Source: an uncultured Staphylococcaceae bacterium (GTDB lineage: Bacteria; Bacillota_I; Bacilli_A; RFN20; CAG-826). Taken from it: a stretch of 37,366 bases of DNA. This document shows positions 4,640 through 23,730 of the stretch, piece by piece (the first letter of the stretch is position 1; each line of letters begins with the position of its first letter). The stretch spans positions 1-37,366 of the forward strand of contig CAZKHP010000002.1 in NCBI GenBank assembly GCA_964552695.1, given 5' to 3'. Both the position numbers and the translations under genes were made by a program. The notes beneath the pieces were generated by a model, which worked only from the letters and a program-made list of their open reading frames with translations, made no database searches and was not told where the DNA came from.

Positions 4640-4665
4640 AATTACCTCTCGCTGAATTCCCCATA

Positions 4666-4694
4666 ATTTTATCATGGAAAAAAAACATTTTCAA
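4666..4694 (-). promoter_or_regulatory. Sigma-A-type promoter of the GGDEF/HD-GYP gene
   Basis: Minus strand: TTGAAA - 17 nt - TAAAAT, with a TG at the extended -10 position (TGATAAAAT). The -35 box lies in the 3' arm of the preceding terminator. Confidence 0.55.
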
Positions 4695-4732: not shown

Positions 4733-5458
4733 TTAATCGTGTTCGGATAGTTCTTGGAAAAGTGTTGAAATGATATTGCCGATCAAGGGTTCGGTTTCAA
4801 GCCCTTTACGTATAAAGTTCAATAATTCATCTTTGTGACCAATGACATAGCTGATGGATTTTAAAGCAATCCAAGGGATATCAAAAGCACGGCAGGCAAG
4901 CGCCACTCCTCCAAGCTCGGTATCAAAGGCATCGATGCCGTCGACATAGGCATAGTGGTGATTAATCAAGCTTTCAGCTTTTACTCGGTCGGTATAAAAC
5001 TTGTTCGTCGACATGACGAATCCACGGGCCAAACTCTTATTGGTCATTTTTTTACCAATAGTTTCAATTTGCAAAAGATAATCATCTTCGGAAAGAAAGA
5101 ATTGCGGCATGGCGGCAATTTGACCGTATTTAATGCCATTTCCCCAGGGGGTAAAATCCACACCTCCCAAGTACACACGGTCGGCCATATAAAGATCGCC
5201 TTGTTTGAGGTTCTCATCAAAGGCGTGAAGCGAGCCCACATTTAAAACAAAATAGGGGTGATACTTATCGATGCAAAGACCGGTGATCATCGCAGCCAAA
5301 GAATTCGATAATCCAGTGGTCGATACAGCAACCTGTTTTCCCGAATACTTTCCTAAAAAAACCTCGGTTTTGCCAGCGATTTTTTCGACATAGGAAATAT
5401 CCATTTTGGTCCGGAAATAGAGAATATCATCATCTGTTGCGCCCAGAATCAGGATCAT
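4733..5458 (-). CDS. MTA/SAH-nucleosidase-like protein (PNP_UDP_1 fold), divergent active site
   Basis: 241-aa ORF. By eye it aligns with Pfs/MtnN: ILILGATDDD vs IGIIGAMEEE, FDTELGG vs VEMEATA, and WIALKSISYV vs FVVVRAISDV. The catalytic Asp of the ISD motif appears to be replaced by Tyr. Its start overlaps the EAL gene stop (TAATG). Confidence 0.6.
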   Translation of the reverse strand: MILILGATDDDILYFRTKMDISYVEKIAGKTEVFLGKYSGKQVAVSTTGLSNSLAAMITGLCIDKYHPYFVLNVGSLHAFDENLKQGDLYMADRVYLGGVDFTPWGNGIKYGQIAAMPQFFLSEDDYLLQIETIGKKMTNKSLARGFVMSTNKFYTDRVKAESLINHHYAYVDGIDAFDTELGGVALACRAFDIPWIALKSISYVIGHKDELLNFIRKGLETEPLIGNIISTLFQELSEHD

Positions 5459-7032
5459 TAAAAGGACTTCCTTTCGAATCGATTTTTCTTGATGAAAATT
5501 ACGTATTCATCGTTGGGTAGAGGCCTACTATAATAATAGCCTTGAATGGCATCACAAGCCAGTTGCTCTTTCAAGATCTGAACCTGCTTCTTGCTTTGAA
5601 TACCTTCGGCGACCGCTTTCATTTCCAAAGCATGGGCCAATTTGATGATGGCTTTAACGACCTCGCGGGCCTTGGCATCCACTTCGATATCATCCAAGAA
5701 AGATTTATCGATTTTGATGGAGTTGACCGGCATGCGTTTGAGTGAGCTCATCGAGGAATAACCGGTTCCAAAGTCATCAATCGCCACTTGAATATTAAGC
5801 CCTTGAATTTGTTTCAGAATGGATAAGATGAAAAGGTTATCTTTTGCGGTTGCCGATTCGGTAATTTCCATTTCCAAAAGGAGCGGGTTTACTTTGTATT
5901 TGTCCAATGTGGCTTTCATAAAGTCGATCAAGTCAGTTTTGAAGATGGATTTCCGGGAAAGGTTAACCGAAATCGGAAGCAAACGTTCGCCCTTAGCTTT
6001 CCAGTTGGCGATATCCTGACACGCCATCTCAAAAACGTAACGGTCGATGGCGATGATCAGCTCTGATTGCTCGGCAAATGGGATGAAAGCGGCGGGAGAA
6101 AGAATTCCTTTCTTCGGGTGGCGCCAACGGATCAATGCTTCGGCCGAGAAGAAACGGTCAAGATTTAAATCGTACTTAGGCTGGTAGAAAAGTTCAAATT
6201 CGTGGTTTTTCATACCTTGGACGATTTCTTCGTAAAGCGGAAGGTCGTTGGTCCCGGCATTTTCAAGGGTTTGTTTATCATAAACGATGATGCCGCCGTG
6301 TTCGTTAAAGTTTCCGTAATCGCACGCCATGAGCGAACGACGGAGCATCTCTTCGGGACTCGTGTTCGGTTCGGTATGGAAATAGACGCCATAGGCAAAA
6401 TCACGGCCGATTTGTAGACTATTTTTTTCCAAACACTTTTTAATGTCCTCTTTGATACGGTCCAAAATCGGGTTGATATCATCCTCGCGCGTATAGCGCA
6501 CATAGAGTAAGAAATTTTCGTTAAAATCGTACCCGTAGAAGGAGTCGGGGATCTCGGCTAAGTTTTCTTCGACCACACCGAAGACCAGGGCGGGTACTTC
6601 GGAACCCATTTTGTAGCCTAATTGACTGATGGCGTCCTTTTTAATTTTATAGATTGAAAAGCTAACAACCGCGCCATGATTAATATCAAAATCGCGGATA
6701 TTTGCAAGGTTTTCTAAAAACTGCGGTTCCGATTTTGCGTTTTTTAAGGTGGTGAATTTTTTCGGGTTAAAACGGACCGAGGTTGTCTTTTTGGCTCGTC
6801 CGATTTCGAGCGAAACCATGATGTAACTTGAAACCAGAAATAAACCTGTCAAAAGTGAAAAAACAAGTGCCCAAGAGGGACGGATGGCCCCATTAAAAAA
6901 GCCCACCAAGAAAAGCACGACATAACTGATCGTTAAGACACCCAAAAAGATCACAAACACGAGGTTGATTGTTTTGCGAAATTTGGGTTCTTCGAACAGC
7001 CTAGTCTTTTTTTGTTTGATCAAGGGGGGCAA
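5458..7032 (-). CDS. Membrane-anchored c-di-GMP phosphodiesterase (degenerate GGDEF-like region plus intact EAL domain)
   Basis: Two N-terminal TM helices. The EAL signature set is present: AEALIRWRHP, SVNLS, EMEITES, AIDDFGTGYSS, IKIDKSF, AEGIQ, QGYYYSRP. The track start is TTG 7032. A second TTG at 7023 has better spacing to AAAGAGG. Either start overlaps the end of the sipW-like gene. Confidence 0.88.
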   Translation of the reverse strand: MPPLIKQKKTRLFEEPKFRKTINLVFVIFLGVLTISYVVLFLVGFFNGAIRPSWALVFSLLTGLFLVSSYIMVSLEIGRAKKTTSVRFNPKKFTTLKNAKSEPQFLENLANIRDFDINHGAVVSFSIYKIKKDAISQLGYKMGSEVPALVFGVVEENLAEIPDSFYGYDFNENFLLYVRYTREDDINPILDRIKEDIKKCLEKNSLQIGRDFAYGVYFHTEPNTSPEEMLRRSLMACDYGNFNEHGGIIVYDKQTLENAGTNDLPLYEEIVQGMKNHEFELFYQPKYDLNLDRFFSAEALIRWRHPKKGILSPAAFIPFAEQSELIIAIDRYVFEMACQDIANWKAKGERLLPISVNLSRKSIFKTDLIDFMKATLDKYKVNPLLLEMEITESATAKDNLFILSILKQIQGLNIQVAIDDFGTGYSSMSSLKRMPVNSIKIDKSFLDDIEVDAKAREVVKAIIKLAHALEMKAVAEGIQSKKQVQILKEQLACDAIQGYYYSRPLPNDEYVIFIKKNRFERKSF

Positions 7033-7810
7033 CCTCTTTCTTGGCTTCTTCTTCCATTTCCTTGCGAATGCGTTCCTTTTCCATTTCTTTGATAATGGAA
7101 AGTTTCTCTTGTTCTTTTATTTTAACAAACTCTTCATCGGATAACTCTTCTTCTGATAAAACTTTTTGGGCCGTTTCATTTTCTTCTGGCCGCATCTTGG
7201 CCGCCTTGACGAAATCCACGATTGAACTGGCAAAAACTGCTCCTAAAGGAATCAACACCAAAAACAGGGTGGTAATCGGGCTAGAGAAGAACTTTGAGAA
7301 AGCTCCCAAAGCGGCGCTCGAAGAGATGACTTTTCCCATGACAAATTCTTCGGGAACAAGATCGGAGTTGGCAAGCGTGCAACCTTGCGTTGGGCAGGTT
7401 TGGGCGTTTAAATTGTCCCCCAAACATTTGAAGGTCAAGGTGCCATCGCCATCATCGATAATTTCAATAATACGGTGAGTGATGATCAAGGAATCGTTGG
7501 TCCGGAAAAAGGTAATAATGTCGCCGTCTTTCGCTTCTGGAGTCGTAGAAGCCACAAGGGTATGCACGTCGACTTTTTTGACGATGACACCATTGCCGAC
7601 CGGAAGTTCGGGCTCCATGGAATCGGTCAAAACGACAAAGGATTGATAACCTAAGAAGGAACTGACACCAAAATTGTTGCGGGCCGAAATGAATCCGGTA
7701 ACTTGGACCACCAGTAACAATCCGACAAATGTTCCCAGAACCCAAGTGAGGATTTTCCCGAACAATGACTTCTTGGTTTTTACTTCTTTTTTCTCAACCT
7801 TTGTTTCCAT
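7001..7810 (-). CDS. sipW: SipW-type (ER/archaeal-type, S26B) signal peptidase I with an extra C-terminal Lys/Glu-rich cytoplasmic tail
   Basis: N-terminal TM helix. Ser box VVLTDSMEPELPVG, His box IITHRIIEI, GDNLN box, and a second TM helix (ITTLFLVLIPLGAVFASSIV). These are followed by a ~60-aa tail EEELSDEEFVKIKEQEKLSIIKEMEKERIRKEMEEEAKKE. RBS GAAGGAACAAATCATG. Confidence 0.82.
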   Translation of the reverse strand: METKVEKKEVKTKKSLFGKILTWVLGTFVGLLLVVQVTGFISARNNFGVSSFLGYQSFVVLTDSMEPELPVGNGVIVKKVDVHTLVASTTPEAKDGDIITFFRTNDSLIITHRIIEIIDDGDGTLTFKCLGDNLNAQTCPTQGCTLANSDLVPEEFVMGKVISSSAALGAFSKFFSSPITTLFLVLIPLGAVFASSIVDFVKAAKMRPEENETAQKVLSEEELSDEEFVKIKEQEKLSIIKEMEKERIRKEMEEEAKKEVAPLDQTKKD

Positions 7811-9229: not shown

Positions 9230-9240
9230 AAAGTTCCTGA

Positions 9241-10761
9241 TTAACTCATCTTAATGTATTTTTCGAGCACGGTGCGCGATTGTTTAAAAGCGCCCTTACC
9301 GAAGAGTTTATCCAATTCGTTGAGCAATTGGTTCATTTCGTCGTGCAAGAAGGCTAAGTTTAACGTCACGAATTTTTTCAAAATCTTGCTTGAGAAAATG
9401 TAATCCATGGCTTCAATGTCGGTTCCTCCGCAGGCGACGTAGGTCGGAACGAAGATTTTCATTTGTTTGATGATACGGTTACCAAACGCGATATTGAATT
9501 TTCCAACGATGAATGCGTCGAGTTTTGCGAACTTATTCAGCAAATCCTCGGACATCGGATAATTCGTTCTGGCTTCTTGGAAAAGCTTATCGAGGTATTG
9601 GAAAGGAAGAGGCATGGATTCGGTGAATGGGCAGTCGAAGGCAACGCCTTTTCCGGAGAATTCAAGCGACATGGCACGGTCGTAGACTTTATCGGTAATG
9701 GTGAACGTGGAGTCATCGTTGTTGGCGGTACCGATGAACCAAAGGTTTTGCGGAATCAGAAGTTTGCCTTCGTTCAAGTGCTTCGGGTCTCCCGCTTCGG
9801 GTTTGTTAGAAATTTCGATTTTCCATTCGGCCACGTTCGGCATTTCCATGATGGACAAGAATTCGGCAAAGTAATATTCGATACGCGCTAAGTTCATTTC
9901 ATCGAGAATGATGAGGTTGTTGTCTTCGCGGTACGTAGCTTCATAAACAGCCTTCAAAAAGTCGGTTTCGTTGAATTTTTTAGAGAATTCGTTGTAATAA
10001 CCGATCAGTTCGCTGCGGTCACGCCACGACGGTTGAACCGAACAAATCTTCGTATCGTTTTGGAAGAATTTGCCTAAAGCGTAAGGTAAAGAAGTTTTAC
10101 CAGTACCGGAGATACCTTCGAGAATCAACAATTTCGAAGTTCCCATGCCGGCGAAGAAGGTACGAAGTGTTTTTTGATCGTAATACAGCTTCATTTGCGA
10201 AGCCGCAAAGTTGCGGAATTTGTTGACTAATTGATCCAGAGAAATATTGGCATCTGCTTCCAAAATCTCGACATGCGTGTTGTAGGTCGTGTATTTGAAA
10301 TCGACGGCTGAAAGTTTGGGAAAGCGGGAATTGGTGAAGTTCGCTTCGGATTCAGGTTTAGGTTGCCCTGGCGGAATTCCTAACGAACCTACTTTCAAGT
10401 TGAGAATTTCGTTTTTCTCCATGACGGCAGTGTAGAGTTGATCATTTAATTCTTGAACTTGTTTGACCAATTTTTGCCGATCCAGACGGCCGTTGTTATA
10501 GGCGATGAACCGTTTGATGACAAAGTAAGCCAAATAGATTAGGCCGCCCAAAAGTGCTAACCAAAGCAAATTGAAAAGGACAAAGAAAAACCAGCCCCAG
10601 AATCCAAATCCATTGATATAGGCATTCAAAATATCGCTGTAATTTCGGAAATTACCGGGAACGGAGCTCCAGGGAATGCCGAAGGTTTCCTTAAAAAACA
10701 GACCGAGATCTTTAAAGAATGCCTCAAATAATTCGCGAATGTAACTGAAGAAATCTTGCAT
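9241..10761 (-). CDS. Membrane-anchored McrB-family (AAA_5-type) AAA+ NTPase
   Basis: Hydrophobic segment GFGFWGWFFFVLFNLLWLALLGGLIYLAYFVI near the N-terminus, then a coiled-coil-like stretch. Walker A LILEGISGTGKTS, Walker B LIILDEMNLARIEYYFAEFLSIME, and a McrB-like signature WFIGTANNDDSTFTITDKVYDRA (compare IIGTMNTADRS...RRF in McrB). Confidence 0.78.
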   Translation of the reverse strand: MQDFFSYIRELFEAFFKDLGLFFKETFGIPWSSVPGNFRNYSDILNAYINGFGFWGWFFFVLFNLLWLALLGGLIYLAYFVIKRFIAYNNGRLDRQKLVKQVQELNDQLYTAVMEKNEILNLKVGSLGIPPGQPKPESEANFTNSRFPKLSAVDFKYTTYNTHVEILEADANISLDQLVNKFRNFAASQMKLYYDQKTLRTFFAGMGTSKLLILEGISGTGKTSLPYALGKFFQNDTKICSVQPSWRDRSELIGYYNEFSKKFNETDFLKAVYEATYREDNNLIILDEMNLARIEYYFAEFLSIMEMPNVAEWKIEISNKPEAGDPKHLNEGKLLIPQNLWFIGTANNDDSTFTITDKVYDRAMSLEFSGKGVAFDCPFTESMPLPFQYLDKLFQEARTNYPMSEDLLNKFAKLDAFIVGKFNIAFGNRIIKQMKIFVPTYVACGGTDIEAMDYIFSSKILKKFVTLNLAFLHDEMNQLLNELDKLFGKGAFKQSRTVLEKYIKMS

Positions 10762-13853: not shown

Positions 13854-14018
13854 GTGTCTTTACCTTTCGTTTTTCAACCACGAAAAGGAAGTTGTTGAAA
13901 ATGAAACTTTTGACAATGTGTGAATGCCCATTCGCCTGGCCGCCCCATTAAAGCGGCTCGGCGGGGAACCTTCACTAATTTCCCGAACGCAGTAGGCGTT
14001 TCGAGAAACCCCCTATTG

Positions 14019-14101
14019 AAATAAAAATAGATGCTAACCAATCATTGCCCGGAACTGGGAAGTACTACTCTCATTCCATTTTTGGCAACTGGCTACCATC
14101 T
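14019..14101 (-). terminator. Expression-platform terminator of riboswitch 1
   Basis: On the minus strand, AGAUGGUAGCCA-GUUGCC (the 3' part of the aptamer) can pair with GGCAAU-(GAU)-UGGUUAGCAUCU. That gives about 18 bp with one G-G mismatch and one 3-nt bulge. The 34-nt apical region has its own GGAAG/CUUCC hairpin. The stem is followed directly by AUUUUUAUUUC. Confidence 0.6.
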
Positions 14102-14162
14102 CTCGTTTGAGTTAGGCCCTATAGCTTTGCGTCGCTAAGTTTCCTTAGTTTTGCTATTGTCA
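14084..14162 (-). promoter_or_regulatory. c-di-GMP-I (GEMM-I) riboswitch aptamer, copy 1
   Basis: The minus-strand RNA is UGACAAUAGCAAAACUAAG-GAAA-CUUAGCGACGCAAAGCUAUAGGGCCUAACUCAAACGAGAGAUGGUAGCCAGUUGCC. It carries the GEMM-I hallmarks: GCAAA(A)C, a hairpin capped by a GAAA tetraloop, ACGCAAAGC, a CCUAAC...GAUGG segment resembling the 11-nt tetraloop receptor, and GGUAGC. By eye it aligns with the Vc2 aptamer. Confidence 0.82.
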
Positions 14163-14168
14163 ACATCC

Positions 14169-14196
14169 ATTATAGAGGTTTTTGCGTTTCTGTCAA
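14169..14196 (-). promoter_or_regulatory. Consensus sigma-A-type promoter driving riboswitch 1 and the ~9.5-kb operon
   Basis: Minus strand: TTGACA (14196..14191) - 16 nt - TATAAT (14174..14169). The aptamer starts within about 10 nt downstream. Confidence 0.75.
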
Positions 14197-14583: not shown

Positions 14584-14970
14584 CTACTTTTTGGCTTCTT
14601 TAGCCTTAGCTTCTTCCATTTCCTTGAGAATCTCTTCGCGGGCTTGTCTTTTGGCTTCAGCAATAAGTTCTTCGTTCGAAAGCGTCGACTTTTTTGCTTT
14701 GTTTTCGTTGTAGAGCGTTTTGATCAGCAAATAGATGTTGAGGAAGAAAAGCGTAATCAACGGAAGGACGATCAGGATGAACATCCAAGCCGGGTTAGCT
14801 TGCAGCCAGGAGATGAACTTCATGAAGGCGCCAGCTTCGGCAGGGATGATGTTGGTGGCGAACATGGCGAACAAGGAGACTGTAAGCAAGAAAACGATGA
14901 CCACAATTTCAGCGACCACTAAAATGGTCGATAGCGACTTATTTTTTCCGGACAGTAATCCTTTACTCAT
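14584..14970 (-). CDS. Small two-TM membrane protein with a Lys/Glu-rich C-terminal tail
   Basis: 128-aa ORF with RBS AGGAGAATTAAAATG. Two hydrophobic helices, then the tail NEELIAEAKRQAREEILKEMEEAKAKEAKK. That tail resembles those of the SipW-like peptidase and the 468-aa protein. Confidence 0.7.
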   Translation of the reverse strand: MSKGLLSGKNKSLSTILVVAEIVVIVFLLTVSLFAMFATNIIPAEAGAFMKFISWLQANPAWMFILIVLPLITLFFLNIYLLIKTLYNENKAKKSTLSNEELIAEAKRQAREEILKEMEEAKAKEAKK

Positions 14971-15012
14971 TTTAATTCTCCTATATGAAAATATATCGCA
15001 TACAATATAACT

Positions 15013-15056
15013 AAAAAAAACTAGGGTGTCAACTGGATAAGCCAGTGAAACCCTAG
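15013..15056 (-). terminator. Strong intrinsic terminator after paralog P4
   Basis: Minus strand: CUAGGGUUUCACUGG-CUUAU-CCAGUUGACACCCUAG followed by eight U. Confidence 0.8.
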
Positions 15057-15088
15057 TAATTTTGTGGAAAATAGGCTATTTGACTAGA

Positions 15089-15997
15089 TTACGCAGCGAC
15101 ACCGTAGATGTCAATGCTGAAATCGAAGACTCCGCCGAGGGCGCCGCCACCAGCAGTGACGTTTTCGCATTCGGGATCTTCGCCTTCAATCCAGGCGCGG
15201 ATCGTGATGTCATCGGAGTAGTCGGGAGTGGCAGCGTCGGTACCATAGAGGGTAACGATCGGTTTGACGTGAGCGGCGGTGGCAAGAGCGGTCGTGGTGT
15301 AAGTGGTCAACGAACCGGCGTGGAAGTTGTCGGTATCATCGAAAGCAGCGGTTTGGGCGACCGAATCAAAACCAGAAACGGTTTTCCAAGTTTTGGCAGC
15401 ATCAGCTTTAACATATTTGTATGCGGCATCGTCAGCATCCGGTGTCCAAATGAAGACTGGGACGTTGGCTTCGTCAAGAATCGCAATGCGGGCGCAGTTA
15501 ACGGCCGCTTCATCTTGAGGATCATCCGCAGTGTGCGGGGTGATCGTGGTGGCTCCGCCAACATAGACGTTCATGTTGCCGGTAGCAACGGAACTTTGAG
15601 AAATCGTCAAGGTAAAGTCGACATAATATCCATCGGCAGCGCCAATACCCGAGGTAAGAAGGGTGGTCACGCTATCGGCCGTGGAAGAATCGGTATCAGC
15701 AGAGTTCCAAATGGGTTTGTAGAAGTTCGCACCATTACCGGAAATATCGGTAATTCTGTGAACGCCGGAAACGGAAATGTTTTGTTCGTCAGCGGATTGG
15801 TGGGCGACAGTGGTCAGTAAGCTGGATTTCCAAGCAACGGTCAAGTCAGATGAGCTCGAATAGACTTCGGCGGACGAATAGTTGATTTGAGCATTACGAA
15901 CGGTTGTGAACCAAGCGAACGTGGAAGCCGAGGCGGCAGCAGCTGTCAGAACGAGCATGCCGGCGGCACTAATTAAAATCTTATTCTTCTTATTCAT
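15089..15997 (-). CDS. Secreted SipW-signal paralog P4 (302 aa), monocistronic; major-subunit candidate
   Basis: N-terminus MNKKNKILISAAGMLVLTAAAASASTFAWFTTVRNA. Mature part is rich in Ala/Thr/Ser/Asp. C-terminal block IRAWIEGEDPEC. Very strong RBS GAGGAGGATTTTATTCATG, with its own promoter and terminator. Confidence 0.75.
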   Translation of the reverse strand: MNKKNKILISAAGMLVLTAAAASASTFAWFTTVRNAQINYSSAEVYSSSSDLTVAWKSSLLTTVAHQSADEQNISVSGVHRITDISGNGANFYKPIWNSADTDSSTADSVTTLLTSGIGAADGYYVDFTLTISQSSVATGNMNVYVGGATTITPHTADDPQDEAAVNCARIAILDEANVPVFIWTPDADDAAYKYVKADAAKTWKTVSGFDSVAQTAAFDDTDNFHAGSLTTYTTTALATAAHVKPIVTLYGTDAATPDYSDDITIRAWIEGEDPECENVTAGGGALGGVFDFSIDIYGVAA

Positions 15998-16138
15998 GAA
16001 TAAAATCCTCCTCTGGATTACCCTTTCATTATTGAAGGGTTCATGCTGTCAAAGTTAATGGGACTTTGACATAATTAACGGGCAATTTCGCTAATTATTG
16101 CAATACTCGAGGGGGCGAGATTGTTAATAAGCAATTAC

Positions 16139-16167
16139 ATTATATATCGGTCTTTTAAAAAGTGCAA
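16139..16167 (-). promoter_or_regulatory. Sigma-A-type promoter of paralog P4
   Basis: Minus strand: TTGCAC - 17 nt - TATAAT. The ~135-nt leader contains two clean hairpins (GUCAAAGU...ACUUUGAC and ACCCUUC...GAAAGGGU). No GEMM-like motif is present. Confidence 0.6.
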
Positions 16168-16321
16168 GTTTTTTGTTTTTTGTTAAAAAGCACTTATTTA
16201 ATCGATACTTTTTCCAAATTTTGTTTTGAATTTTAGATTGTTTGGCTTATTTGATTGTCCACTATTTTCTTACAAATTTCATACAACCCATGGACTTTAT
16301 TCTATACTTATACACACGTGT

Positions 16322-16353
16322 GCGAAAAAAGAAAAAGGATCCCGGAAGGATCC
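16322..16353 (-). terminator. Intrinsic terminator ending the riboswitch-2 operon
   Basis: Minus strand: GGAUCC-UUCCG-GGAUCC followed by UUUUUCUUUUUU. It starts about 30 nt after the stop at 16385. Confidence 0.75.
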
Positions 16354-16384
16354 AAAAAAGTTTGTTAGACAAGTGTCCAAAGAT

Positions 16385-17227
16385 TTAAGAGATATTGACT
16401 GACAACTCGGTGATTGAGAATGAGAGATTTTTATAGACATTGGATGTTCCTTCGACATCGGAAAAGTAATAATCATGACCGCTACTGGTATAAGAATAGG
16501 AATAATACGTTGATGGTGCATTGCTGAATTCGATCGTAAAAAAGAAAATGATTTTATCCGCTGGAACTTCATCAAAATCGAGAACATCTTGCGCGAGGGT
16601 AATGTTGGAAGGTCCGGATGCAGCTGTTTGATTGAAACGATCGGTTTGACTGGTCGATGTCACAAACGCATTGGCTCCGGTTGTAATGCTGCCGCTATTG
16701 CCATCGATCGCCGTGGAATAAACATTGATTGCCTGCGCGAGGTTAATCGGGGTATTGGTGGTTGCGTTGTAGAACGTCGTGGACGGAACCGCAACGTAGT
16801 CGGTGAGCCTTAAAAACACGGTTTTATCAATAGCAAAATCGCCGGTCACTTCCAAAGCATAGGTAAATCGAAGACTGGGGTATTGCGCATTGATGATGAC
16901 GGTTTGAATGCCGTTCAGATAGGGATCTTCGCTGATTGGCAGGAATTGCGTATCGTAATTGTCGACCGTGACGATATCCGAAGGACTAAGAGCAACTTCT
17001 GGGCTTTGGTACCCATTGGGCGTTCCGTTGGAACCATAGTTCTTGGTGAAGTATTTGAGTTCGTAGGAAATATCGCCGGAGGCTTGAACGGTCATGGCGG
17101 TCACCCCGGCCTCCCGTTTAAACGAAAACCAGGCATAGGTCAAGTATAAAAAGGATGTCAAAGAAATCGCCGCCGACAACGTGGTGATCACCAAATTGAT
17201 CTTCAGTTTTTTCGATGTCAATGCCAT
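16385..17227 (-). CDS. Secreted SipW-signal paralog P3 (280 aa)
   Basis: N-terminus MALTSKKLKINLVITTLSAAISLTSFLYLTYAWFSFKRE. It lacks the W-x-E-G-x-D block. It starts 2 nt after the stop of the 759-aa gene. Confidence 0.68.
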   Translation of the reverse strand: MALTSKKLKINLVITTLSAAISLTSFLYLTYAWFSFKREAGVTAMTVQASGDISYELKYFTKNYGSNGTPNGYQSPEVALSPSDIVTVDNYDTQFLPISEDPYLNGIQTVIINAQYPSLRFTYALEVTGDFAIDKTVFLRLTDYVAVPSTTFYNATTNTPINLAQAINVYSTAIDGNSGSITTGANAFVTSTSQTDRFNQTAASGPSNITLAQDVLDFDEVPADKIIFFFTIEFSNAPSTYYSYSYTSSGHDYYFSDVEGTSNVYKNLSFSITELSVNIS

Positions 17228-17229
17228 CG

Positions 17230-19509
17230 TTAGAATCCCGCCAAAACGGCCTGCTGATAATCCGTTGTATTAGTTAGAGGGAAGCTCGTTGAGTTCGTAT
17301 AAAGACCGTGAACGTAAGTGTAAAGCGGATTGCTGCTGAGTTCGCGGTAAAACCGATAGACGGTTCCGGAGGTGTTTTGGTTGTAGTTGGAAACGTTGAG
17401 TTGGACTTTGACGTTGCTGGCTTCGTTCCACGCCACATACGTTCCACTGACAAAGTCAGTGCTGCGATTCGGGAGCGAATATAAATAGTCGATATTAGAG
17501 GTTTGCGAGGACACGTCGCCGTCTTTGGACGTGAAACGGATGTCCATGCGGATGATGTTCAATTCGAAAGCGTCCGCCGTAAAATTGTCATAATTGAAAC
17601 GAACTGTGTCACTTGTATCATTGTCTGTTGCAACCGGCGTATTTTTCCCAACCCCGATGGCAATCAACGGAAAATAGTTTGAAGCGGACCAGAAACTGGA
17701 AGAAGTATTCACGGTAAAGGAGAGGGTTTCGCTGCGTAAAACGCCGCTGGTTGTTCCCGCACCTTGGGTTTTGACGACGGGATGCTGACTGGGATCGTAA
17801 ATCAAAACGTTATCTTGATAGGAAGTTCCTAAGTTCGTCCAGTGATCATCGTAGACAAGGTCATATTTTGTGTTGTTGTTTTCAGAAAGGTTAGGATTGT
17901 AACGATTATAGAGAATTTGAAAGTTGTTGCTTGTCGAAGTGCTGTTGGCAATAAAATCCATCGTCACCGAGATTTCATACGTCGTTGAAGTTCGGGTAAA
18001 CCGACGGACGGAAGAGTTGGTGGTATTCAGCCACAACCAAAGGCCATTTCGCATGGTAGCATCGCGTCCAAACCAGTCGTAGGTATACCAGAAAAGGAAG
18101 CGGTAACGCAGGTACTCTTCACGGGTTCCGACGCCCAAAGGGCTGGTAATCCGTTGAACATAATAGGTATCTGTTCCGCCACCGGGATTGGTGTAAGAGA
18201 CATGGGTATTGGCTAAGTTAGGGTAGAACCGGGTCAAGGAGGCTTCGGTAGAGGTTAAACCATAGGCGGTTGTGGCAGAAATGGCGCGGTTGTATTGGGT
18301 GGTGTAGTTTACAATCGGGTTATTACCTTCATAAACTGAGTAAGAAGTTCCGTCGAGGCCGTTGGCCGGAATGATTTCGTTGAAATCCAACAAGGTTTGG
18401 TCCATGTTCGCGCCGGAATCATCCAAAGGGTTATCGGTGCGGGCGTATCCAATCAAGATACTATACGAACGGGCATTTCGGCCATTGACGGTTATTTTGC
18501 CATTGGATGTTCCGGAAGCATTGGCCCCATACATTCCCAAAAAGGAAGCCGAGCCGTCCAAGTGGCCGACAAACAAGCCGACATAAGTACCGTGGGGATA
18601 CGTCGTATTATGAACGCATTTAAACCACCCGGGGTTGACCGTGGAGCTTCCGACTTCGACCGTGCCGTTGCCTTTAACGTTGATTTGCCAACGTTCCAAG
18701 GTGTACGAGATGATTTGATTGTTATAAAGGGCAAAAACCCGCGCAATTAATGAGACCGGATAGAGCGTTGTTGGTTTTGAGGTATTCGGTTGTCCACAAG
18801 TCCAAACTCCTGAACTCGATTCATAAAGAAGACTCGTATTGGTGCTTTGGTAGACGATGGTGTAACTGGCGTTGTCAGTTCCGGTGACTGTGGTTCTTGG
18901 CACAGTAAAGCGAGCCGGCGTAGCATTGGTAAACGTCAGGTTTCCGATATTGGTCCCTGCAGTGTTGAGTATGGAGTACATAGGGTGAGCACTGGGGGCC
19001 GAAACAGCAGTTCCCACGGTGTTTGCCGTAACGTTGACGGTCGGTGTTTGTAAAACGAGATTCCGAATGGATCCTCCCAAAGCGACATAGCCGAACATAC
19101 CGATATCGTCAGTATTAGCCCCGTTAACCACAAGATTGGTTATTTTATAACCATATCCGTCAAACTGACTGTAGAACGGATAATCTTCATTGCCGATAGG
19201 AACCAACGCATCCCCCGAATAGGTGATATCGCTAGTCATGCGGAAATACGTCGAGCTGCTGAAAACACCTAGAACGTTGAGTTTCTGAAGGGTTCTTAAA
19301 TCGCCCGAATTGCTGATGAGGAAAGGGGCCGTTGACGTTCCTGAACCGCCACTGGTAAACATACTGCTGATGTTGACGGTGTTCGCGTCAATCGGTAATT
19401 CATATTGGTTGGCGTTCAAATAGGCGGCATAGCTAAAAGCCGCTACCGAAACCGCGCCGGTTGCCAACGAGAGGATAAGAATTGCCGAATACAGCGTCGT
19501 TTTTTTCAT
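17230..19509 (-). CDS. Large secreted paralog P2 (759 aa); tip-adhesin candidate with a beta-helix-like N-terminal module
   Basis: N-terminus MKKTTLYSAILILSLATGAVSVAAFSYAAYLNA, a variant of the family motif. It is followed by PFLISNSGDLRTLQKL...FRMTSDITY...PIGNEDYPFYSQFDGYGYKITNLVV...DIGMFGYV..GGSIRNLVL. This pattern opens many GLUG-type/parallel-beta-helix surface proteins. The remainder is rich in Asn/Ser/Thr/Tyr. RBS AAAGGAG. Confidence 0.68.
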   Translation of the reverse strand: MKKTTLYSAILILSLATGAVSVAAFSYAAYLNANQYELPIDANTVNISSMFTSGGSGTSTAPFLISNSGDLRTLQKLNVLGVFSSSTYFRMTSDITYSGDALVPIGNEDYPFYSQFDGYGYKITNLVVNGANTDDIGMFGYVALGGSIRNLVLQTPTVNVTANTVGTAVSAPSAHPMYSILNTAGTNIGNLTFTNATPARFTVPRTTVTGTDNASYTIVYQSTNTSLLYESSSGVWTCGQPNTSKPTTLYPVSLIARVFALYNNQIISYTLERWQINVKGNGTVEVGSSTVNPGWFKCVHNTTYPHGTYVGLFVGHLDGSASFLGMYGANASGTSNGKITVNGRNARSYSILIGYARTDNPLDDSGANMDQTLLDFNEIIPANGLDGTSYSVYEGNNPIVNYTTQYNRAISATTAYGLTSTEASLTRFYPNLANTHVSYTNPGGGTDTYYVQRITSPLGVGTREEYLRYRFLFWYTYDWFGRDATMRNGLWLWLNTTNSSVRRFTRTSTTYEISVTMDFIANSTSTSNNFQILYNRYNPNLSENNNTKYDLVYDDHWTNLGTSYQDNVLIYDPSQHPVVKTQGAGTTSGVLRSETLSFTVNTSSSFWSASNYFPLIAIGVGKNTPVATDNDTSDTVRFNYDNFTADAFELNIIRMDIRFTSKDGDVSSQTSNIDYLYSLPNRSTDFVSGTYVAWNEASNVKVQLNVSNYNQNTSGTVYRFYRELSSNPLYTYVHGLYTNSTSFPLTNTTDYQQAVLAGF

Positions 19510-19521
19510 GGCGTCTCCTTT

Positions 19522-20409
19522 CTATGCGTAAATGGGTGAGTTGGAATACGAAATGTTCAAGTTGAAATCGATACCGAAACGAAGTGGATAGCTTAAAAGC
19601 GTTGGATTAGCCCGAACGAAGGACTGGAATAAGGCTCCATCCATGCTTAATTCGATCATGAGGCTGGTTGCAAAAACAAAGTTCCCGGAAACTTTGGTCG
19701 CGAATTTGGGAATGAAGGATTGATTGGCCAACCCGGTTGTATTCGTCACGGGAGAACCGGAAAGATCACTGGCATCGAAAAGGGTAATACCACTGGTTCG
19801 TTGCCCGGAGGTTCTAAAGAAACTTGCCAGAGTTTTCGCTTCCAAAGCCGGAATTTGCGAAGGGAAAGCCGAAACCATCGGGCTTGAAGGACTATTGTCA
19901 ACTGCCACATAACGGTAATTGAAAGGGTAAGCCGTTGAAAAATTGAGCTCGCTGGACGTTGCGGTGGGAATGGAGACATATTGCATATTGGCAGTCACAT
20001 AACCATAACGGTCGGGTTGGATGAAACGAAGTTCGAGATAATAAGTCGGTAACCCCGGAACGTAATAAGCGTTTTCGTTGTAATAAGCTCGCGTCAAAAG
20101 GTAATCGGTTGCAAGAGCATTTGAAAAGTCAACATTCACTTGGCCGTTGGTCAGTGAGCTTTGGGTAACGTTCAATCGATCGGTTTGATCGACATAATAA
20201 GCTACTTCGGAAGTACTGGGAGTTTCGCCATAGCGCCGTTCATAAATGTGGGCTTCGATGGTTACTTCGGAATTTCCCGTTGAAAGAGCCACCATGTTGG
20301 TGACGGAGCGACTGTATTTGATCCACGCAAAAGTAGCGCTTGTTAATGCAAGTGCACTGGCCACAAGGGCAATGGTGGTTGTCATAATCAGTTTGCTTTG
20401 TGGTTTCAT
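19522..20409 (-). CDS. Secreted SipW-signal paralog P1 (295 aa), first gene after riboswitch 2
   Basis: N-terminus MKPQSKLIMTTTIALVASALALTSATFAWIKYSRS. The RBS AAGAGG lies immediately after the riboswitch terminator U-tract. Confidence 0.68.
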   Translation of the reverse strand: MKPQSKLIMTTTIALVASALALTSATFAWIKYSRSVTNMVALSTGNSEVTIEAHIYERRYGETPSTSEVAYYVDQTDRLNVTQSSLTNGQVNVDFSNALATDYLLTRAYYNENAYYVPGLPTYYLELRFIQPDRYGYVTANMQYVSIPTATSSELNFSTAYPFNYRYVAVDNSPSSPMVSAFPSQIPALEAKTLASFFRTSGQRTSGITLFDASDLSGSPVTNTTGLANQSFIPKFATKVSGNFVFATSLMIELSMDGALFQSFVRANPTLLSYPLRFGIDFNLNISYSNSPIYA

Positions 20410-20422
20410 GGGACCTCTTCGG

Positions 20423-20467
20423 AAATAAAAAAGCAGCCGCTACCATTCACTTAGGCAACTGGCTACC
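20423..20467 (-). terminator. Expression-platform terminator of riboswitch 2
   Basis: Minus strand: GGUAGCC(A)GUUGCC-UAAGUGAAU-GGUAGCGGCUGCU, about 13 bp with one bulged A, followed by UUUUUAUUU. The 5' arm is the 3' end of the aptamer. Confidence 0.75.
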
Positions 20468-20532
20468 TCTTAATCTTTGGAGGCCCTTTAGCTTTGCGTC
20501 GCTAGATTACTCTAGGTTTGCTATTTACTAAC
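20454..20532 (-). promoter_or_regulatory. c-di-GMP-I (GEMM-I) riboswitch aptamer, copy 2
   Basis: The minus-strand RNA is GUUAGUAAAUAGCAAACCUAGA-GUAA-UCUAGCGACGCAAAGCUAAAGGGCCUCCAAAGAUUAAGAGGUAGCCAGUUGCC. It has the same conserved blocks as copy 1: AAUAGCAAA, CGACGCAAAGCUA, AGGGCCU and GGUAGCCAGUUGCC. The first hairpin shows compensatory changes (CUAGA/UCUAG here vs CUAAG/CUUAG in copy 1). Confidence 0.82.
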
Positions 20533-20535
20533 TTG

Positions 20536-20564
20536 ATTATATAGATGCGATATAAAGTTGTCAA
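20536..20564 (-). promoter_or_regulatory. Consensus sigma-A-type promoter driving riboswitch 2
   Basis: Minus strand: TTGACA (20564..20559) - 17 nt - TATAAT (20541..20536). The -35 box lies 5 nt after the stop codon of the upstream 1000-aa signalling gene. Confidence 0.75.
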
Positions 20565-20569
20565 ACAGT

Positions 20570-23500
20570 CTACTTGCCCCCGCCCACGAATTTCAGGAAG
20601 TCCGAAATAGACATTGGCTTGGCAAAATAGAAGCCTTGCACCATGCGAATATTGAGCCGTTTCACGATGTTCGCTTGATCTTCGGTTTCGATTCCTTCGA
20701 TGATGATGTTGTTGTTCATTTCCCGGATTTTCGCGCGCAAATGGTCAAAGCTTAAGAAAGCCGAGCTGTCGCTTTCAATCCCGCGGACAAGGTCTCTCTC
20801 GAACTTTACACAGTTGAAAGGGAGCGAAGCGGCAATTTGGAAATCAAGCACTCGATCGGTATAGTTATCAAGACAGAAAACAATGTTATTTCCTTGCAAA
20901 TCCTTCATGAATTTGCGAGTTTCGTTTTCTTTTTCGGCGACGGTTTTTTCTGAAATTTCAAGTTGCAAGAACCCTTTTGGAAACTTGTAACGAGAAACGA
21001 TTTGTTTGACAGCTTCGCGGAATCCGGAATCGAGCACCGAATCGGTTGAGACGTTGACTGCAAGGCGTTCTACGCCATTTTGTCGGAATAGATCAAAACC
21101 GTAGTTTTTCCACATTTCCCCGACATTGTATAGAAGTGCCTTTTCGATATCGACAAGAAGATGGGCTTCACTGGCAGTTGCCAAAAATTCACTCGTTGAA
21201 ATATATCCGCGGTTTGGATCATAAAGACGGGAAACGAGTTCTCCTCCGACGGGTTCGGTATTGTTGATGTTCATGATGGGGTTGATGTAAATTTCAAACT
21301 TCTGCTTTGTGACCGCTTCGCGGATCAGGTCAAGCACATAACCTTTCCGTTCGGCTTTACGTGTCTTTTTATTGTCTGCGACATACATCATGTCGTTGCC
21401 GGCTTTTTGGGTACTCTTAAAACCGGCCGTCAGCATGGCTTCAATTGCCGCAGCATCGCGGACATCGCCGGGGTATGCGGCAATCGTCATCCAGAAATGA
21501 GGACTCTTAGGATCATTTCCTCCGATTTCTCTTGCGGTCGCATAAATGGATTCAGCCATTGAGAAAGCGGCGGCGCGCGTTGCTTCAGGGAAAGAGACGA
21601 AAAGCGTATTTCCGCTATAGCGATAAATGAAGTCGCCAAAACTGGCGTTTTCAAGTTTTCGGCAGAGTAAGTTCAATGTTGCGGACATGACTTCATCGGG
21701 CTCGAAAGAGACCGTGGGAGGAACATTGCATAAAGAAATCGAGAATAGGTATCCGTTACGGTCATCGCTAACAGCATTTTGAACATCCAGCTCCAGGCGT
21801 CTTCGATTTTTAATCGAAAAGTCCATATCCAAATAGCGTGGTTCGGTTTCCGCTAACGCCGCTCTTAAGGGGCGAATGGAGATGGCGGTTTCGTGAGAGT
21901 TGGCGGAAAAATTCATCAAGGAACGTAAGAAAGGCAAAGGTGAAATCAAAGGCATCGGAATTTCTTTGGAACCCACTTTCAAGGGGCAATTCGGACAGAT
22001 TGAATCACGGTTATGAAAAACCTTATAACAACGCTCGCCGAGTGTCTTTTGCGATTTATAGAAGGAAGCCAAGTTTGAAGAAAGATAGTTTAATGAAAAA
22101 GTGTTTTTGTCGATGACATAAACATAACGTTCATCCATTTTCAAAACATGCTCGAGCAGTTCATTCTTGCTTCGCTCGTAGTCAGAATGGACAACTTCCT
22201 TTATAAAGGTACCCAATAATGCACCGGCGAAATTCAAAATGGTTTGTTCACTCACGGTCAGAGAACGGTTTTTCTGGCTGGAGCAAAAGTAAACAAGGCC
22301 ATAGGTTCGCTCTTTATTGCCGATGACTTGGAAATGGAATGTTTTGATATCGAGATTGGTCAAAATTTTCCCAAGGCTGATAGGATAGGAATCAACATCG
22401 GATCCATAAACTGCTCCGGAAGCATCTACGGCCGCAAAGATGGGTTGAAGGTCATCAAAAGTAATGCGTTTGAGTTTTTGGAAGGTCGGATGTTCATGGA
22501 GACGGCAATCTTCGAAGCCTACCCGAAATTCGTCTAGCGAAGCATCCAAAAGCAAGTAACCAGCATTATGAAAACCAAACTGACTGGAAATTTTGAGAAG
22601 GTTTTGCCGAATAAATTTGTCGAAACTATCTTTGTTTTGCACATTTTTGGCTTCGAGAATCAAAGCTTCGGCGTTGAGCAAAAACAAACGGCCGACGCTT
22701 TCGAAAGTTTCACGATGGGAAATATCACTTTGCCGAATTGCGGGAAGGTAAATGAAGTAGTCCTTACTTTTCTCAAGGGCGAAAAGCGCGTCTCTTTCAA
22801 GGTCACGCCGGGTTGTGTAAGGATAAATAGCGCCACCGATACGGATTTGAGCAACTTCCATTCCTTTTCGGTTCTTTTCAACTTTCGTCGGAACAAAGTG
22901 AATGTAGAAATTTTCGATTTTTGCCTTCAATAAACTTAAGGAATTGACTTTGGGTAAAAACAAGGCAATCGTGTTCGGAAGGTATTCACCGATGACCCCT
23001 TCTTCAAAATATTCGCGCAATCCTTTAACGAGTTCGCCCATAAAAGGCTGAATATCAGGGTTCAAAATCCGAATCAAAATAAACGCGGAACGATAGGACG
23101 CGTTGGCTTGTGAAAGGAAGAAGACGGCTTGATTATATTCGCCTTTGGATAGCAGTCCGCCGGCCTTGATTCTTTTTTCAACTTCTTCCGGAATCGGTTC
23201 GCCGCTGATCGTGGGTTCCAGTTTGCTGTAACGTTCCAAAAGTTCGTTAACGTCATTTTCCAAAACAGCGAGCTCTTCAATGTTCTTATTGCCATCTTTT
23301 GGTTTTTCGGCGAGCGTTAAGCCATAATAAAGTTTGGTGGAAATTCCCGCCAAACCCTTGTTAATGGCCGAGTTGATGGTCATCACATGGCGGTAAATCA
23401 AAAAACCAAAAAGTCCATTTAGAACCAATGTCAAGATGAGTAAGCCCACCAAAAGGAAAGCATTGTTAATTGTAAAATAGTTTATGACAATGGCGGCCGA

Positions 23501-23578
23501 AACCAAAACCACCGAAGAAATCATTCCGAGGATAAAGCTGGCGACAGTTTGGTCAAGGTCGTATTTAAGAGTTTTCAT
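20570..23578 (-). CDS. Large membrane-anchored signalling protein with degenerate GGDEF-like modules, a Cys4 motif and a partly degenerate C-terminal EAL domain
   Basis: Two TM helices after MKTLKYDL. There are GGDEF-like regions with YLPNTIALF and YSGNTLFVSF in place of GGDEF, and a CYKVFHNRDSICPNCP motif. The EAL-like end reads GGELVSRLY, NVS, LEISE, CLDNYTD (for DDFGTG), VKFERD, IEGIE, QGFYFAKP. I chose the start at M33 of the track ORF. The track start is GTG 23674 without an RBS, and a TATAAT box lies inside that extension. Confidence 0.75.
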   Translation of the reverse strand: MKTLKYDLDQTVASFILGMISSVVLVSAAIVINYFTINNAFLLVGLLILTLVLNGLFGFLIYRHVMTINSAINKGLAGISTKLYYGLTLAEKPKDGNKNIEELAVLENDVNELLERYSKLEPTISGEPIPEEVEKRIKAGGLLSKGEYNQAVFFLSQANASYRSAFILIRILNPDIQPFMGELVKGLREYFEEGVIGEYLPNTIALFLPKVNSLSLLKAKIENFYIHFVPTKVEKNRKGMEVAQIRIGGAIYPYTTRRDLERDALFALEKSKDYFIYLPAIRQSDISHRETFESVGRLFLLNAEALILEAKNVQNKDSFDKFIRQNLLKISSQFGFHNAGYLLLDASLDEFRVGFEDCRLHEHPTFQKLKRITFDDLQPIFAAVDASGAVYGSDVDSYPISLGKILTNLDIKTFHFQVIGNKERTYGLVYFCSSQKNRSLTVSEQTILNFAGALLGTFIKEVVHSDYERSKNELLEHVLKMDERYVYVIDKNTFSLNYLSSNLASFYKSQKTLGERCYKVFHNRDSICPNCPLKVGSKEIPMPLISPLPFLRSLMNFSANSHETAISIRPLRAALAETEPRYLDMDFSIKNRRRLELDVQNAVSDDRNGYLFSISLCNVPPTVSFEPDEVMSATLNLLCRKLENASFGDFIYRYSGNTLFVSFPEATRAAAFSMAESIYATAREIGGNDPKSPHFWMTIAAYPGDVRDAAAIEAMLTAGFKSTQKAGNDMMYVADNKKTRKAERKGYVLDLIREAVTKQKFEIYINPIMNINNTEPVGGELVSRLYDPNRGYISTSEFLATASEAHLLVDIEKALLYNVGEMWKNYGFDLFRQNGVERLAVNVSTDSVLDSGFREAVKQIVSRYKFPKGFLQLEISEKTVAEKENETRKFMKDLQGNNIVFCLDNYTDRVLDFQIAASLPFNCVKFERDLVRGIESDSSAFLSFDHLRAKIREMNNNIIIEGIETEDQANIVKRLNIRMVQGFYFAKPMSISDFLKFVGGGK

Positions 23579-23730
23579 AGATTTTCTTTCTTTTTCTTTA
23601 TTTATTATATTACATCGGTCTTGAACCAAAAGAAGAAACCTGCAAAATTTAGGCTTTTCCGCTTTTTTGCTCACGAACTCATAGATTTTCTACCATGGAT
23701 GAAAGGTATGCGTGATAAAATACAATCATC

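Follow-up and report, generated by a model that had tools for sequence, protein, structure and literature searches.

Upstream of a run of three genes without recognizable domains, an uncultured member of the Bacilli carries a short intergenic region that has the appearance of a cyclic-dinucleotide riboswitch, and the question raised by this locus is which second messenger is sensed there, in which direction the switch operates and what is produced when it is thrown. The locus lies in a stretch of 37,366 nucleotides (nt) from an uncultured Staphylococcaceae bacterium (contig CAZKHP010000002.1), the whole of which we refer to as the window; the leader in question is read on the minus strand, directly before the genes here called P1, P2 and P3, and a second riboswitch, copy 1, controls another operon further along the same strand. 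A preliminary description of the leader, made from its sequence, had proposed a riboswitch of the c-di-GMP-I type, i.e. for bis-(3'-5')-cyclic dimeric guanosine monophosphate (c-di-GMP), acting as an ON switch. The interpretation that we regard as quite probable is close to this: a transcriptional ON riboswitch of the GEMM-I class, for which c-di-GMP is the most likely ligand and for which secreted proteins with SipW-type leaders would be the output.

The leader and its switch

The leader begins with a sigma-70-type promoter (20536..20564, minus strand) in which TTGACA (20564-20559) and TATAAT (20541-20536) are separated by a 17-nt spacer; as had been described, both hexamers agree perfectly with the consensus (12/12), and this promoter ranked first in a scan of 8 kb. 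Judging from the spacing only, transcription would start at about 20530-20528, 6-8 nt past the -10 hexamer. The RNA was described as some 80 nt long, with the conserved GEMM-I blocks and a GNRA-capped hairpin, and all of these blocks were found, namely GCAAAC, a GUAA-capped hairpin (loop 20510-20507), ACGCAAAGC and GGUAGC. A covariance search returned the Rfam family RF01051 (c-di-GMP-I) at 20451-20532 on the minus strand, a match that scores 57.1 bits (gathering score 35; E 9.4e-9) and covers model positions 1-87 of 87. The aptamer comprises two hairpins, built on the helices P2 and P3 (labels that are unrelated to those of the genes): the P2 stem spans 20516-20501 and bears the GUAA cap, the P3 helix is without a GAAA receptor, and the isolated aptamer sequence folds into the consensus two-hairpin structure. 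Alignment with the consensus, with Cd1 of Clostridioides difficile and with the Geobacter pilM RNA identifies the ligand-contacting A47 and C92 (Vc2 numbering; for their roles see PMC6140456 and PMC9262584) as A 20495 and C 20455. The latter corresponds in the literature mapping to Cd1 C87 and pilM C75, and it is the nucleotide with which one of the ligand bases forms a Watson-Crick pair. The predicted transcription start leaves no space for the helix P1, which is no obstacle, since the Cd1 constructs used in binding studies, starting 10 nt 5' of the specificity base and ending at the final GCC (PMC9262584), likewise lack the 3' strand of that helix.

The aptamer runs directly into an intrinsic terminator (20423..20467, minus strand), consisting of a hairpin at 20467-20433 and the U-tract U6AU3 at 20432-20423. 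Its 5' arm, GGUAGCC-A-GUUGCC (20467-20454), is at the same time the 3' strand of the aptamer, the loop UAAGUGAAU has 9 nt, and the 3' arm is GGUAGCGGCUGC (20444-20433); the stem of 12-13 base pairs has one bulged A and could be extended into the U-tract. Folding of the complete leader gave a minimum free energy (MFE) structure of -42.7 kcal/mol that holds the P2 hairpin and the terminator stem (z = -4.15; 0/200 shuffled sequences were equally stable). The ribosome-binding site (RBS) of P1, GAAGAGG at 20420-20414, begins 2 nt past the U-tract and is followed, after a spacer, by the ATG at 20409-20407 (RBS and start together 20407..20420, minus strand). On the other side, the stop codon of the upstream gene, which encodes a large EAL-domain protein, lies 5 nt before the -35 hexamer, and no terminator stands between that gene and the riboswitch promoter. 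The preliminary description had anticipated each of these points: the terminator of 13 base pairs with its U-tract, the 5' arm shared with the aptamer, the RBS of gene 19522-20409 directly behind it and the missing terminator after the EAL gene.

Since the terminator takes up both the 3' strand of P3 and C 20455, which in the folded terminator stem pairs with a G, the ligand-bound aptamer and the terminator exclude each other. It can thus be envisioned that a constitutive consensus promoter would start the transcript about 6-8 nt upstream of the aptamer core, and that ligand bound while the polymerase crosses the next ~21 nt would lock P3 and C 20455 in the aptamer, so that no terminator would form and P1-P2-P3 would be transcribed. 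Without ligand, the aptamer 3' strand GGUAGCCAGUUGCC would pair with the 3' arm of the terminator, and transcription would stop at the U-tract. The calculated energies agree with this ON logic: the aptamer fold without ligand has about -13 to -14 kcal/mol, the terminator hairpin alone -21.6 kcal/mol. The decision would be a kinetic one, as in pilM, because the aptamer ends (20454) only 21 nt before the terminator 3' arm is complete (20433). An additional consequence would concern the upstream gene: with no terminator directly behind the EAL gene, its transcripts probably end at that of the riboswitch as well when the ligand is scarce. Taken as a prediction from sequence, the ON design that the preliminary description had put forward is well supported, by the mutual exclusion of the two folds, by their conservation in the orthologous leaders and by the precedents of pilM, a cGAMP switch, and Bc2, a c-di-GMP switch, where the same mutually exclusive aptamer/terminator design has been found experimentally to work as an ON switch (PMC9262584, PMC4933901).

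The conservation of the leader bears this out. A search among 5.8 billion proteins gave 13 clusters of P1 homologs, all from metagenomes or metagenome-assembled genomes and none of them named, and the homologous loci that we examined encode P1 proteins of 42-98% identity. Every P1 homolog with available upstream DNA is preceded by a gene for an EAL protein of about 1000 residues and by an RF01051 match of 58-61 bits, and followed by P2 and P3; the layout of promoter, aptamer, terminator and RBS recurs 5' of all P1 homologs whose upstream DNA could be read. These intergenic regions align from end to end. The orthologous promoters keep TTGAC(A/T)-N17-TATAAT, with TATACT in locus L010, and the two hexamers are also conserved in loci L015 and L016. 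All ten orthologous leaders retain a hairpin (-12 to -29 kcal/mol) with a U-tract, and in each of them the 5' arm of the terminator is the aptamer 3' strand GG(U/C)AGCCAGUUGCC. With the 5' arm frozen by the aptamer, only the 3' arm is free to vary, and it does so as GGUAGCGGCUGC, GGUAGCGGUUAC, GGUAACGGCUGCC, GGUAACUGGCUAC and others, all of which preserve G-C, A-U or G-U pairs; such pair-preserving variation is the pattern expected if selection acts on the terminator itself. The overlapping terminator layout is found also in L015, in L016 and in copy 1. The aptamer core is near-invariant, and the aptamer as a whole changes hardly at all between hosts whose P1 proteins are 42-68% identical, and is thus under strong purifying selection.

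A wider view of the family was obtained with the protein profile of B4, a paralogous protein encoded at 15089-15997 in the window, which retrieved 55 further metagenomic loci. An anchored motif scan of all loci gave 67 aptamers, 49 of them distinct, and in the 12 longest loci Rfam confirmed 20/20 of the motif matches and added one more. RNAalifold analysis of 29 diverse family aptamers recovered both GEMM-I hairpins, with 14 pairs of which 6 show compensatory double changes and one is ever broken. The hallmark of GEMM-I aptamers is that a GAAA loop goes with a receptor and a GYRA loop without one, and this rule holds in 49/49 cases here: all 25 aptamers with GAAA loops have GAUGG in P3 and all 24 with GYRA loops do not, the receptor-less GUAA loop of the window aptamer falling in the latter group. 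Covariation and the tetraloop/receptor signature together make membership in RF01051 secure, and the RNA is a genuine member of the GEMM-I riboswitch family. For terminators of the long-range type found in copy 1 the automated detector under-calls (26/46), and those were assessed by individual folds. One aptamer-like sequence from the motif scan, at about position 1351 of locus L025, has C at the specificity position and deviates also in GGCGCAAAG, GGACC and CCATTTGCC; it may be a decaying copy or a variant of different specificity.

The leader could carry a second regulatory layer. The 5' strand of P3, GGGCCUC (20480..20486, minus strand), is a candidate anti-Shine-Dalgarno element once formation of the terminator has freed it from the aptamer, being complementary to GAGGUCC (20417-20411) in the Shine-Dalgarno region of P1. 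A helix between the two occurs in the MFE folds of 9/10 orthologous leaders, and in 7/10 it exceeds in strength at least 97% of the controls with a shuffled RBS. In transcripts that escape termination, the released GGGCCUC could therefore mask the Shine-Dalgarno sequence, and RBS masking as a second layer is plausible on the basis of these folds. If so, the leader may combine termination and RBS masking within about 125 nt.

The specificity base and the ligand

While the direction of the switch can be read from the leader with some assurance, the ligand depends on a single position. The preliminary description had placed the ligand-selecting base at the G within GCAAA, and here it pointed to the wrong nucleotide: in the consensus structure of Rfam that G forms part of a base pair, and its identification with Vc2 G20 is ruled out by the mutant constructs of Cd1. 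In Cd1, G11 corresponds to Vc2 G20 (PMC9262584), the constructs listed in the supplement of that study being AAATAGGCAAATC for the wild type, AAATACGCAAATC for G11C and AAATAAGCAAATC for G11A; in the Geobacter RNA Gs1761, the specificity adenine A14, again the equivalent of Vc2 G20, is the last junction nucleotide before the first pair of P2 (PMC6274999). The Cd1 constructs, the junction definition in Gs1761 and the pilM sequence together assign specificity to the base just 5' of GCAAA. In the window aptamer this base is the A at 20522 (minus strand). The sequence up to and including position 20 reads AAAUA in the window aptamer (followed by GCAAACC), CAAUA in copy 1 (followed by GCAAAAC) and CAAUA in pilM (followed by CUAAACC), with A in all three and G in Cd1. 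Both window copies and all orthologs have A at position 20. The aptamer hence lacks the G of the canonical type and carries the A20 by which GEMM-Ib, the class that senses 3',3'-cyclic GMP-AMP (cGAMP), is defined.

What A20 does to binding is known from other RNAs. G20 recognises one of the guanines of c-di-GMP by its Hoogsteen face, and the change A20G turns a Geobacter cGAMP switch into a c-di-GMP switch (PMC6456294). The reverse change is less clear-cut: Vc2 G20A binds both ligands (cGAMP at 120 nM, c-di-GMP at 53 nM), and Cbe 1-2, a natural A20 RNA from a Firmicute, binds c-di-GMP at 30 nM and cGAMP at 463 nM (PMC6140456). Among natural A20 RNAs, the preferences extend from a selectivity of about 1200-fold for cGAMP to a preference for c-di-GMP (PMC6456294, PMC6140456), and on this comparison A20 appears to widen the range of ligands and not to fix it. 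The genomic context can also be consulted. The window encodes two EAL proteins and one protein with 5TMR-LYT, PAS, GGDEF and HD-GYP domains; the single GGDEF domain encoded there combines an intact motif (…LINDGFGHETGD…RTGGDEF…) with the canonical Asp (GHETGD), at the site (GacA position 348) where the cGAMP-making Hypr enzymes have Ser/Thr. The neighbouring enzymes look like c-di-GMP enzymes, and the context favours that ligand. Accordingly worded, the name given by the preliminary description stands as far as the GEMM-I family is concerned, and does not stand as a safe assignment of c-di-GMP, for an A20 variant may be bispecific or cGAMP-responsive. We consider it reasonably probable that the physiological ligand is c-di-GMP, whether or not there is a cross-response to cGAMP, and improbable that the riboswitch is selective for cGAMP; the most likely behaviour, by analogy with the RNAs above, would be binding of c-di-GMP at a reduced affinity in the nanomolar range, possibly together with 3',3'-cGAMP.

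Of the 49 distinct aptamers in the wider family, 25 have G at position 20, 23 have A and 1 has C. Within loci that have two riboswitches the base agrees in 15/16 cases (9 G/G, 6 A/A), but these loci are phylogenetically clustered and the counts, inflated by close kin, allow no statistical conclusion. On the motif scan alone the concordance is perfect (15/15), but an additional Rfam match in locus L057 overturns it: within a single gene cluster, at 2618-2699 and 8451-8529, this locus combines a G20 with an A20 riboswitch. It is the only such case found, and its G20 copy has GGC in place of GAC before GCAAAAC. The pattern as a whole is compatible with a tuning of affinity at the level of lineages or with a change of signal at that level. 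Position 20 is also loosely correlated with the base that follows the AAA junction (alignment columns 36-39, 20493-20490 in the window), A20 aptamers having mostly GCAAAGCU and G20 aptamers mostly GCAAAACU, with exceptions both ways; this may reflect a second-site adjustment of the binding pocket or mere shared ancestry.

Set beside characterised riboswitches, the window RNA has its nearest relatives in different systems according to what is compared. By sequence the closest is Cd1, which controls a flagellar operon and belongs to the same family RF01051; the two share a core of the Firmicute type, …AAAUA-N-GCAAA-hairpin-GACGCAAAGCUAUAGGG…AGCCAGUUGCC. Cd1, however, has G at position 20 (G11) and a receptor to match its GAAA loop, and its terminator, a hairpin of its own further downstream, makes it an OFF switch (PMC9262584), whereas the window RNA has A20, a receptor-less GUAA loop and an overlapping terminator of the ON type. 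By mechanism the nearest are pilM/Gs1761 and Bc2. The Geobacter GEMM-Ib cGAMP riboswitches pilM/Gs1761 resemble the window RNA in having A at the specificity position, in being ON switches and in using the aptamer 3' strand as 5' arm of a terminator that sequesters the ligand-pairing C (pilM C75), with a short window for binding; they differ in that their deltaproteobacterial hosts have a dedicated Hypr GGDEF cGAMP synthase while the cyclase of the window is canonical, in the closing pair of P2, which is C-G (CUAAA) there and G-C here, and in that their selectivity for cGAMP is a measured one and the ligand of the window RNA a predicted one. Bc2 of Bacillus thuringiensis, compared by its description, is likewise a transcriptional ON switch of the GEMM-I class in a Firmicute; it precedes the collagen adhesin gene cap and de-represses a surface/adhesion protein at high c-di-GMP (PMC4933901). 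Its output is a single annotated adhesin of the LPXTG type, in contrast to the operon of unannotated proteins with putative SipW-type leaders that follows the A20 aptamer of the window. By ligand behaviour, finally, the best guide is likely Cbe 1-2 of Clostridium beijerinckii, also a Firmicute GEMM-I RNA with A20 and also compared by description, which binds c-di-GMP through a protonated A (PMC6140456) and whose gene context, as far as known, is unrelated to that of the window. Both the riboswitch class and the expression platform are thus already known; what is unusual is that A20 is fixed in both copies and that the regulon is unannotated.

The regulated genes and their neighbourhood

The unit controlled by the leader comprises P1 (295 aa, 19522..20409), P2 (759 aa, 17230..19509, its synteny conserved) and P3 (280 aa, 16385..17227), all on the minus strand, and is closed after P3 by a terminator-like hairpin with U-tract (16353-16337). 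Searches of P1, P2, P3 and their paralogs found no Pfam or NCBIfam domain, relaxed thresholds included (no NCBIfam match appeared even at E <= 10), and neither P2 nor the profile of B4 had a PDB sequence match. What P1, P2 and P3 have in common is their N-terminus, in which a short basic segment and a hydrophobic helix precede the motif T/S-x-(F/Y)-A-W, which in P1 takes the form S..FAW, with S24, F27, A28 and W29 invariant in the family, and in P3 the form YAWF. The AlphaFold2 model of P1, based on an alignment of 10 sequences, is mostly beta but of mediocre quality, with a mean predicted local distance difference test score (pLDDT) of 59.

Behind P3 lies B4 (302 aa, rich in Ala and Thr; 15089..15997, minus strand), a paralogous protein with the strong RBS GGAGGA. 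T26-F27-A28-W29-F30 is invariant in its family, and in a profile-profile comparison the P1 and B4 families share only the 34-residue leader (94.9%, E 4e-8). JGI labels B4 homologs as 'predicted ribosomally synthesized peptide with SipW-like signal peptide', and the model of B4, which is of good quality (pLDDT 82), is all-beta. The gene is separated from the terminator of P3 by a gap of about 390 nt and has a leader of about 140 nt (15089-16384); its family, with 63 clusters, is much larger than that of P1, and the conserved motif W-[LI]-E-G-[ED]-D at the C-terminus of its members recurs in the proteins A1 and A2. B4 thus looks like a major subunit that is expressed separately and at a high level.

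The second riboswitch, copy 1 (14018..14196, minus strand), precedes the operon 13853-7001 and repeats the layout of promoter, RF01051 aptamer and overlapping terminator: the promoter is TTGACA-16-TATAAT (14196-14169, 12/12), the aptamer (14165-14081, 67.1 bits) has A20, its GAAA loop is accompanied by the receptor, and the aptamer 3' strand takes part in a long-range terminator of -27.4 kcal/mol. The stretch from this terminator to the ATG at 13853, about 165 nt long, is another structured leader. Besides further proteins with the 'TFAW' leader, the copy-1 operon encodes a SipW-like signal peptidase I of the archaeal/ER type (269 aa, 7001..7810, minus strand), which passes TIGR02228 marginally (51.9 bits, cutoff 51.85), matches the SipW family NF046067 at E 1.4e-18, below the equivalog cutoff, and has a weak match to Peptidase_S26. 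This peptidase is a candidate for the processing enzyme of the 'TFAW'-leader proteins. Two further proteins of the same operon are encoded at 7823-10761 (minus strand), one of 506 aa that matches McrB-like/AAA_5 families weakly and one of 468 aa that is rich in Lys and Glu and whose homolog in L016 (region 15057-18053) carries DUF2357; an McrBC-like pair is unexpected in an operon for secreted proteins. A third near-consensus promoter, TTGACA-17-TATATT (11/12), stands before the gene for a 128-aa membrane protein (14584-15032, minus strand); the C-terminal part of this protein is similar to the extension that the SipW-like peptidase has at its own C-terminus (34% over 97 aa, E 1e-7).

EAL proteins border both operons. 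The large EAL-domain protein (1034 aa, 20570..23674, minus strand; EAL match 3e-40) is kept in synteny as neighbour of the riboswitch; measured against the catalytic motifs of EAL proteins, its own are partly degenerate (ELV for EAL, DNYTDR for DDFGTG), with EGIE and QGFYF kept, and it may be a receptor of c-di-GMP and not an active phosphodiesterase. At the distal end, the 5TMR-LYT/PAS/GGDEF/HD-GYP protein (2624-4675, minus strand), whose GGDEF and HHExxDGxGYP motifs are apparently intact, is encoded next to the second EAL protein (5458-7032) and a PNP_UDP_1 phosphorylase, and L015 and L016 have the EAL-PNP_UDP pair in the same arrangement. The whole cluster with its two riboswitches is syntenic in L016, and in the more distant L015 it occurs in a reduced form, with the riboswitches directly before B4-like genes.

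The shared 'TFAW' leader and the SipW-like peptidase encoded in the cluster suggest a reading in terms of a TasA-like matrix, and the cluster plausibly encodes a second-messenger-induced, SipW-dependent secreted matrix or fibre system. This fits the usual rule that surface and biofilm functions are switched on at high c-di-GMP. The SipW-TasA/CalY/BsaA systems of Bacillus and Clostridium resemble the window in that an archaeal/ER-type signal peptidase is encoded beside several secreted beta-rich proteins and in that the leaders end in a T-[FW]-A-x-F-like motif, and a role of BsaA/SipW in the biofilm matrix has been described (PMC7395162). They differ from it in that the window proteins have no Peptidase_M73/TasA domain, no significant sequence similarity and a weak structural match, and in that the window cluster also encodes the McrB-like AAA protein and the DUF2357-family protein. 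Our literature search found no paper linking a c-di-GMP riboswitch to SipW.

Alternative explanations and implications

The alternative that most deserves attention, although we hold it to be unlikely, is that the RNA is a true GEMM-Ib riboswitch selectively sensing 3',3'-cGAMP and that this lineage of uncultured Bacilli induces secreted-protein operons by cGAMP. HD-GYP phosphodiesterases as a class include cGAMP phosphodiesterases, and one HD-GYP domain is encoded in the window. The presence of A20, the defining GEMM-Ib change, in the window copy, in copy 1 and in every ortholog, together with the flip of the Geobacter switch by A20G (PMC6456294), is what this explanation would predict, and the agreement of position 20 within loci would fit a difference in signal between lineages. 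A20 is insufficient for selectivity, however, as Vc2 G20A and Cbe 1-2 bind both ligands and the latter prefers c-di-GMP; the sole cyclase of the window has the canonical Asp where a Hypr enzyme would have Ser/Thr, both operons are flanked by EAL proteins, L057 mixes G20 and A20 in one cluster, and the concordance between riboswitches of a locus draws much of its force from closely related loci.

Two other explanations concern the direction and level of control. According to one of these, which seems to us distinctly improbable, control is mainly translational, the ligand freeing the Shine-Dalgarno sequence from GGGCCUC, and the hairpin with its U-tract serves mostly as the terminator of the EAL gene, which has no other behind it. 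The anti-Shine-Dalgarno pairing predicted in nine of the ten leaders, and better than shuffled controls in seven, speaks for such a role; nevertheless, L007 lacks this helix while the terminator is kept in all leaders, copy 1, with about 165 nt from terminator to start codon, cannot mask its RBS in the same way and yet keeps the overlapping terminator, and a complementarity between CCUC and GAGG can arise by chance from the composition of Shine-Dalgarno sequences. According to the other, the RNA is an OFF switch, or a decayed, non-functional aptamer beside an ordinary terminator. This has in its favour that Cd1, the nearest characterised riboswitch by sequence, is an OFF switch, but the terminator of Cd1 is separate, lies downstream and is compatible with the aptamer, while that of the window consumes the aptamer 3' strand, and the signs of strong purifying selection on the aptamer and the compensatory changes across the family would hardly be expected of a decayed element; we give this explanation very little credence.

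Several points nevertheless weigh against the interpretation that we prefer, a transcriptional ON switch responding most likely to c-di-GMP and controlling secreted matrix proteins. A20 is the signature of cGAMP-sensing GEMM-Ib and a single base sets selectivity in the Geobacter RNAs, so that c-di-GMP is not secured as the ligand, and a cGAMP synthase could be encoded elsewhere than in the 37 kb of genome examined. The switch itself, in ligand binding, termination and read-through, is a prediction throughout, and with a binding window as short as ~21 nt its function would hinge on kinetics. The proposed second layer is uneven, the RBS-masking helix being absent in L007 and weak in L011 and L012. 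As for the output, protein function is only inferred, and the comparisons with the TasA family are weak or negative: the fold search with the P1 model gave only non-significant, jelly-roll-like matches, the best PDB match of the B4 model is the TasA fibre 8AUR, with values that are weak and non-significant (E 0.023, template modelling score 0.24-0.30), the Pfam search found no Peptidase_M73/TasA domain, and an hhalign comparison of the B4 profile with TasA was not significant, with a probability of 1.7%.

For the family as a whole, the near-equal division between A and G at position 20, usually concerted within a genome, offers a test bed for the role of A20 outside Geobacter, where it could stand for a tuning of affinity or for a change of ligand. 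The bolder idea, that A20, fixed in both riboswitches of this lineage, marks a switch of messenger and that uncultured Bacilli of digesters and wastewater use 3',3'-cGAMP, or c-di-GMP and cGAMP together, through riboswitches of the GEMM-Ib type to induce an undescribed SipW-dependent, TasA-like fibre or matrix system, we consider improbable; if true, it would extend cGAMP signalling through riboswitches beyond the Deltaproteobacteria and connect it with a Gram-positive surface structure of a new class. The riboswitch opens a way to the function of some ten unannotated genes that form a conserved cluster in uncultured Bacilli, in which two cyclic-dinucleotide ON switches, a SipW-like peptidase and many proteins with 'TFAW' leaders point to an induced extracellular matrix or fibre system.

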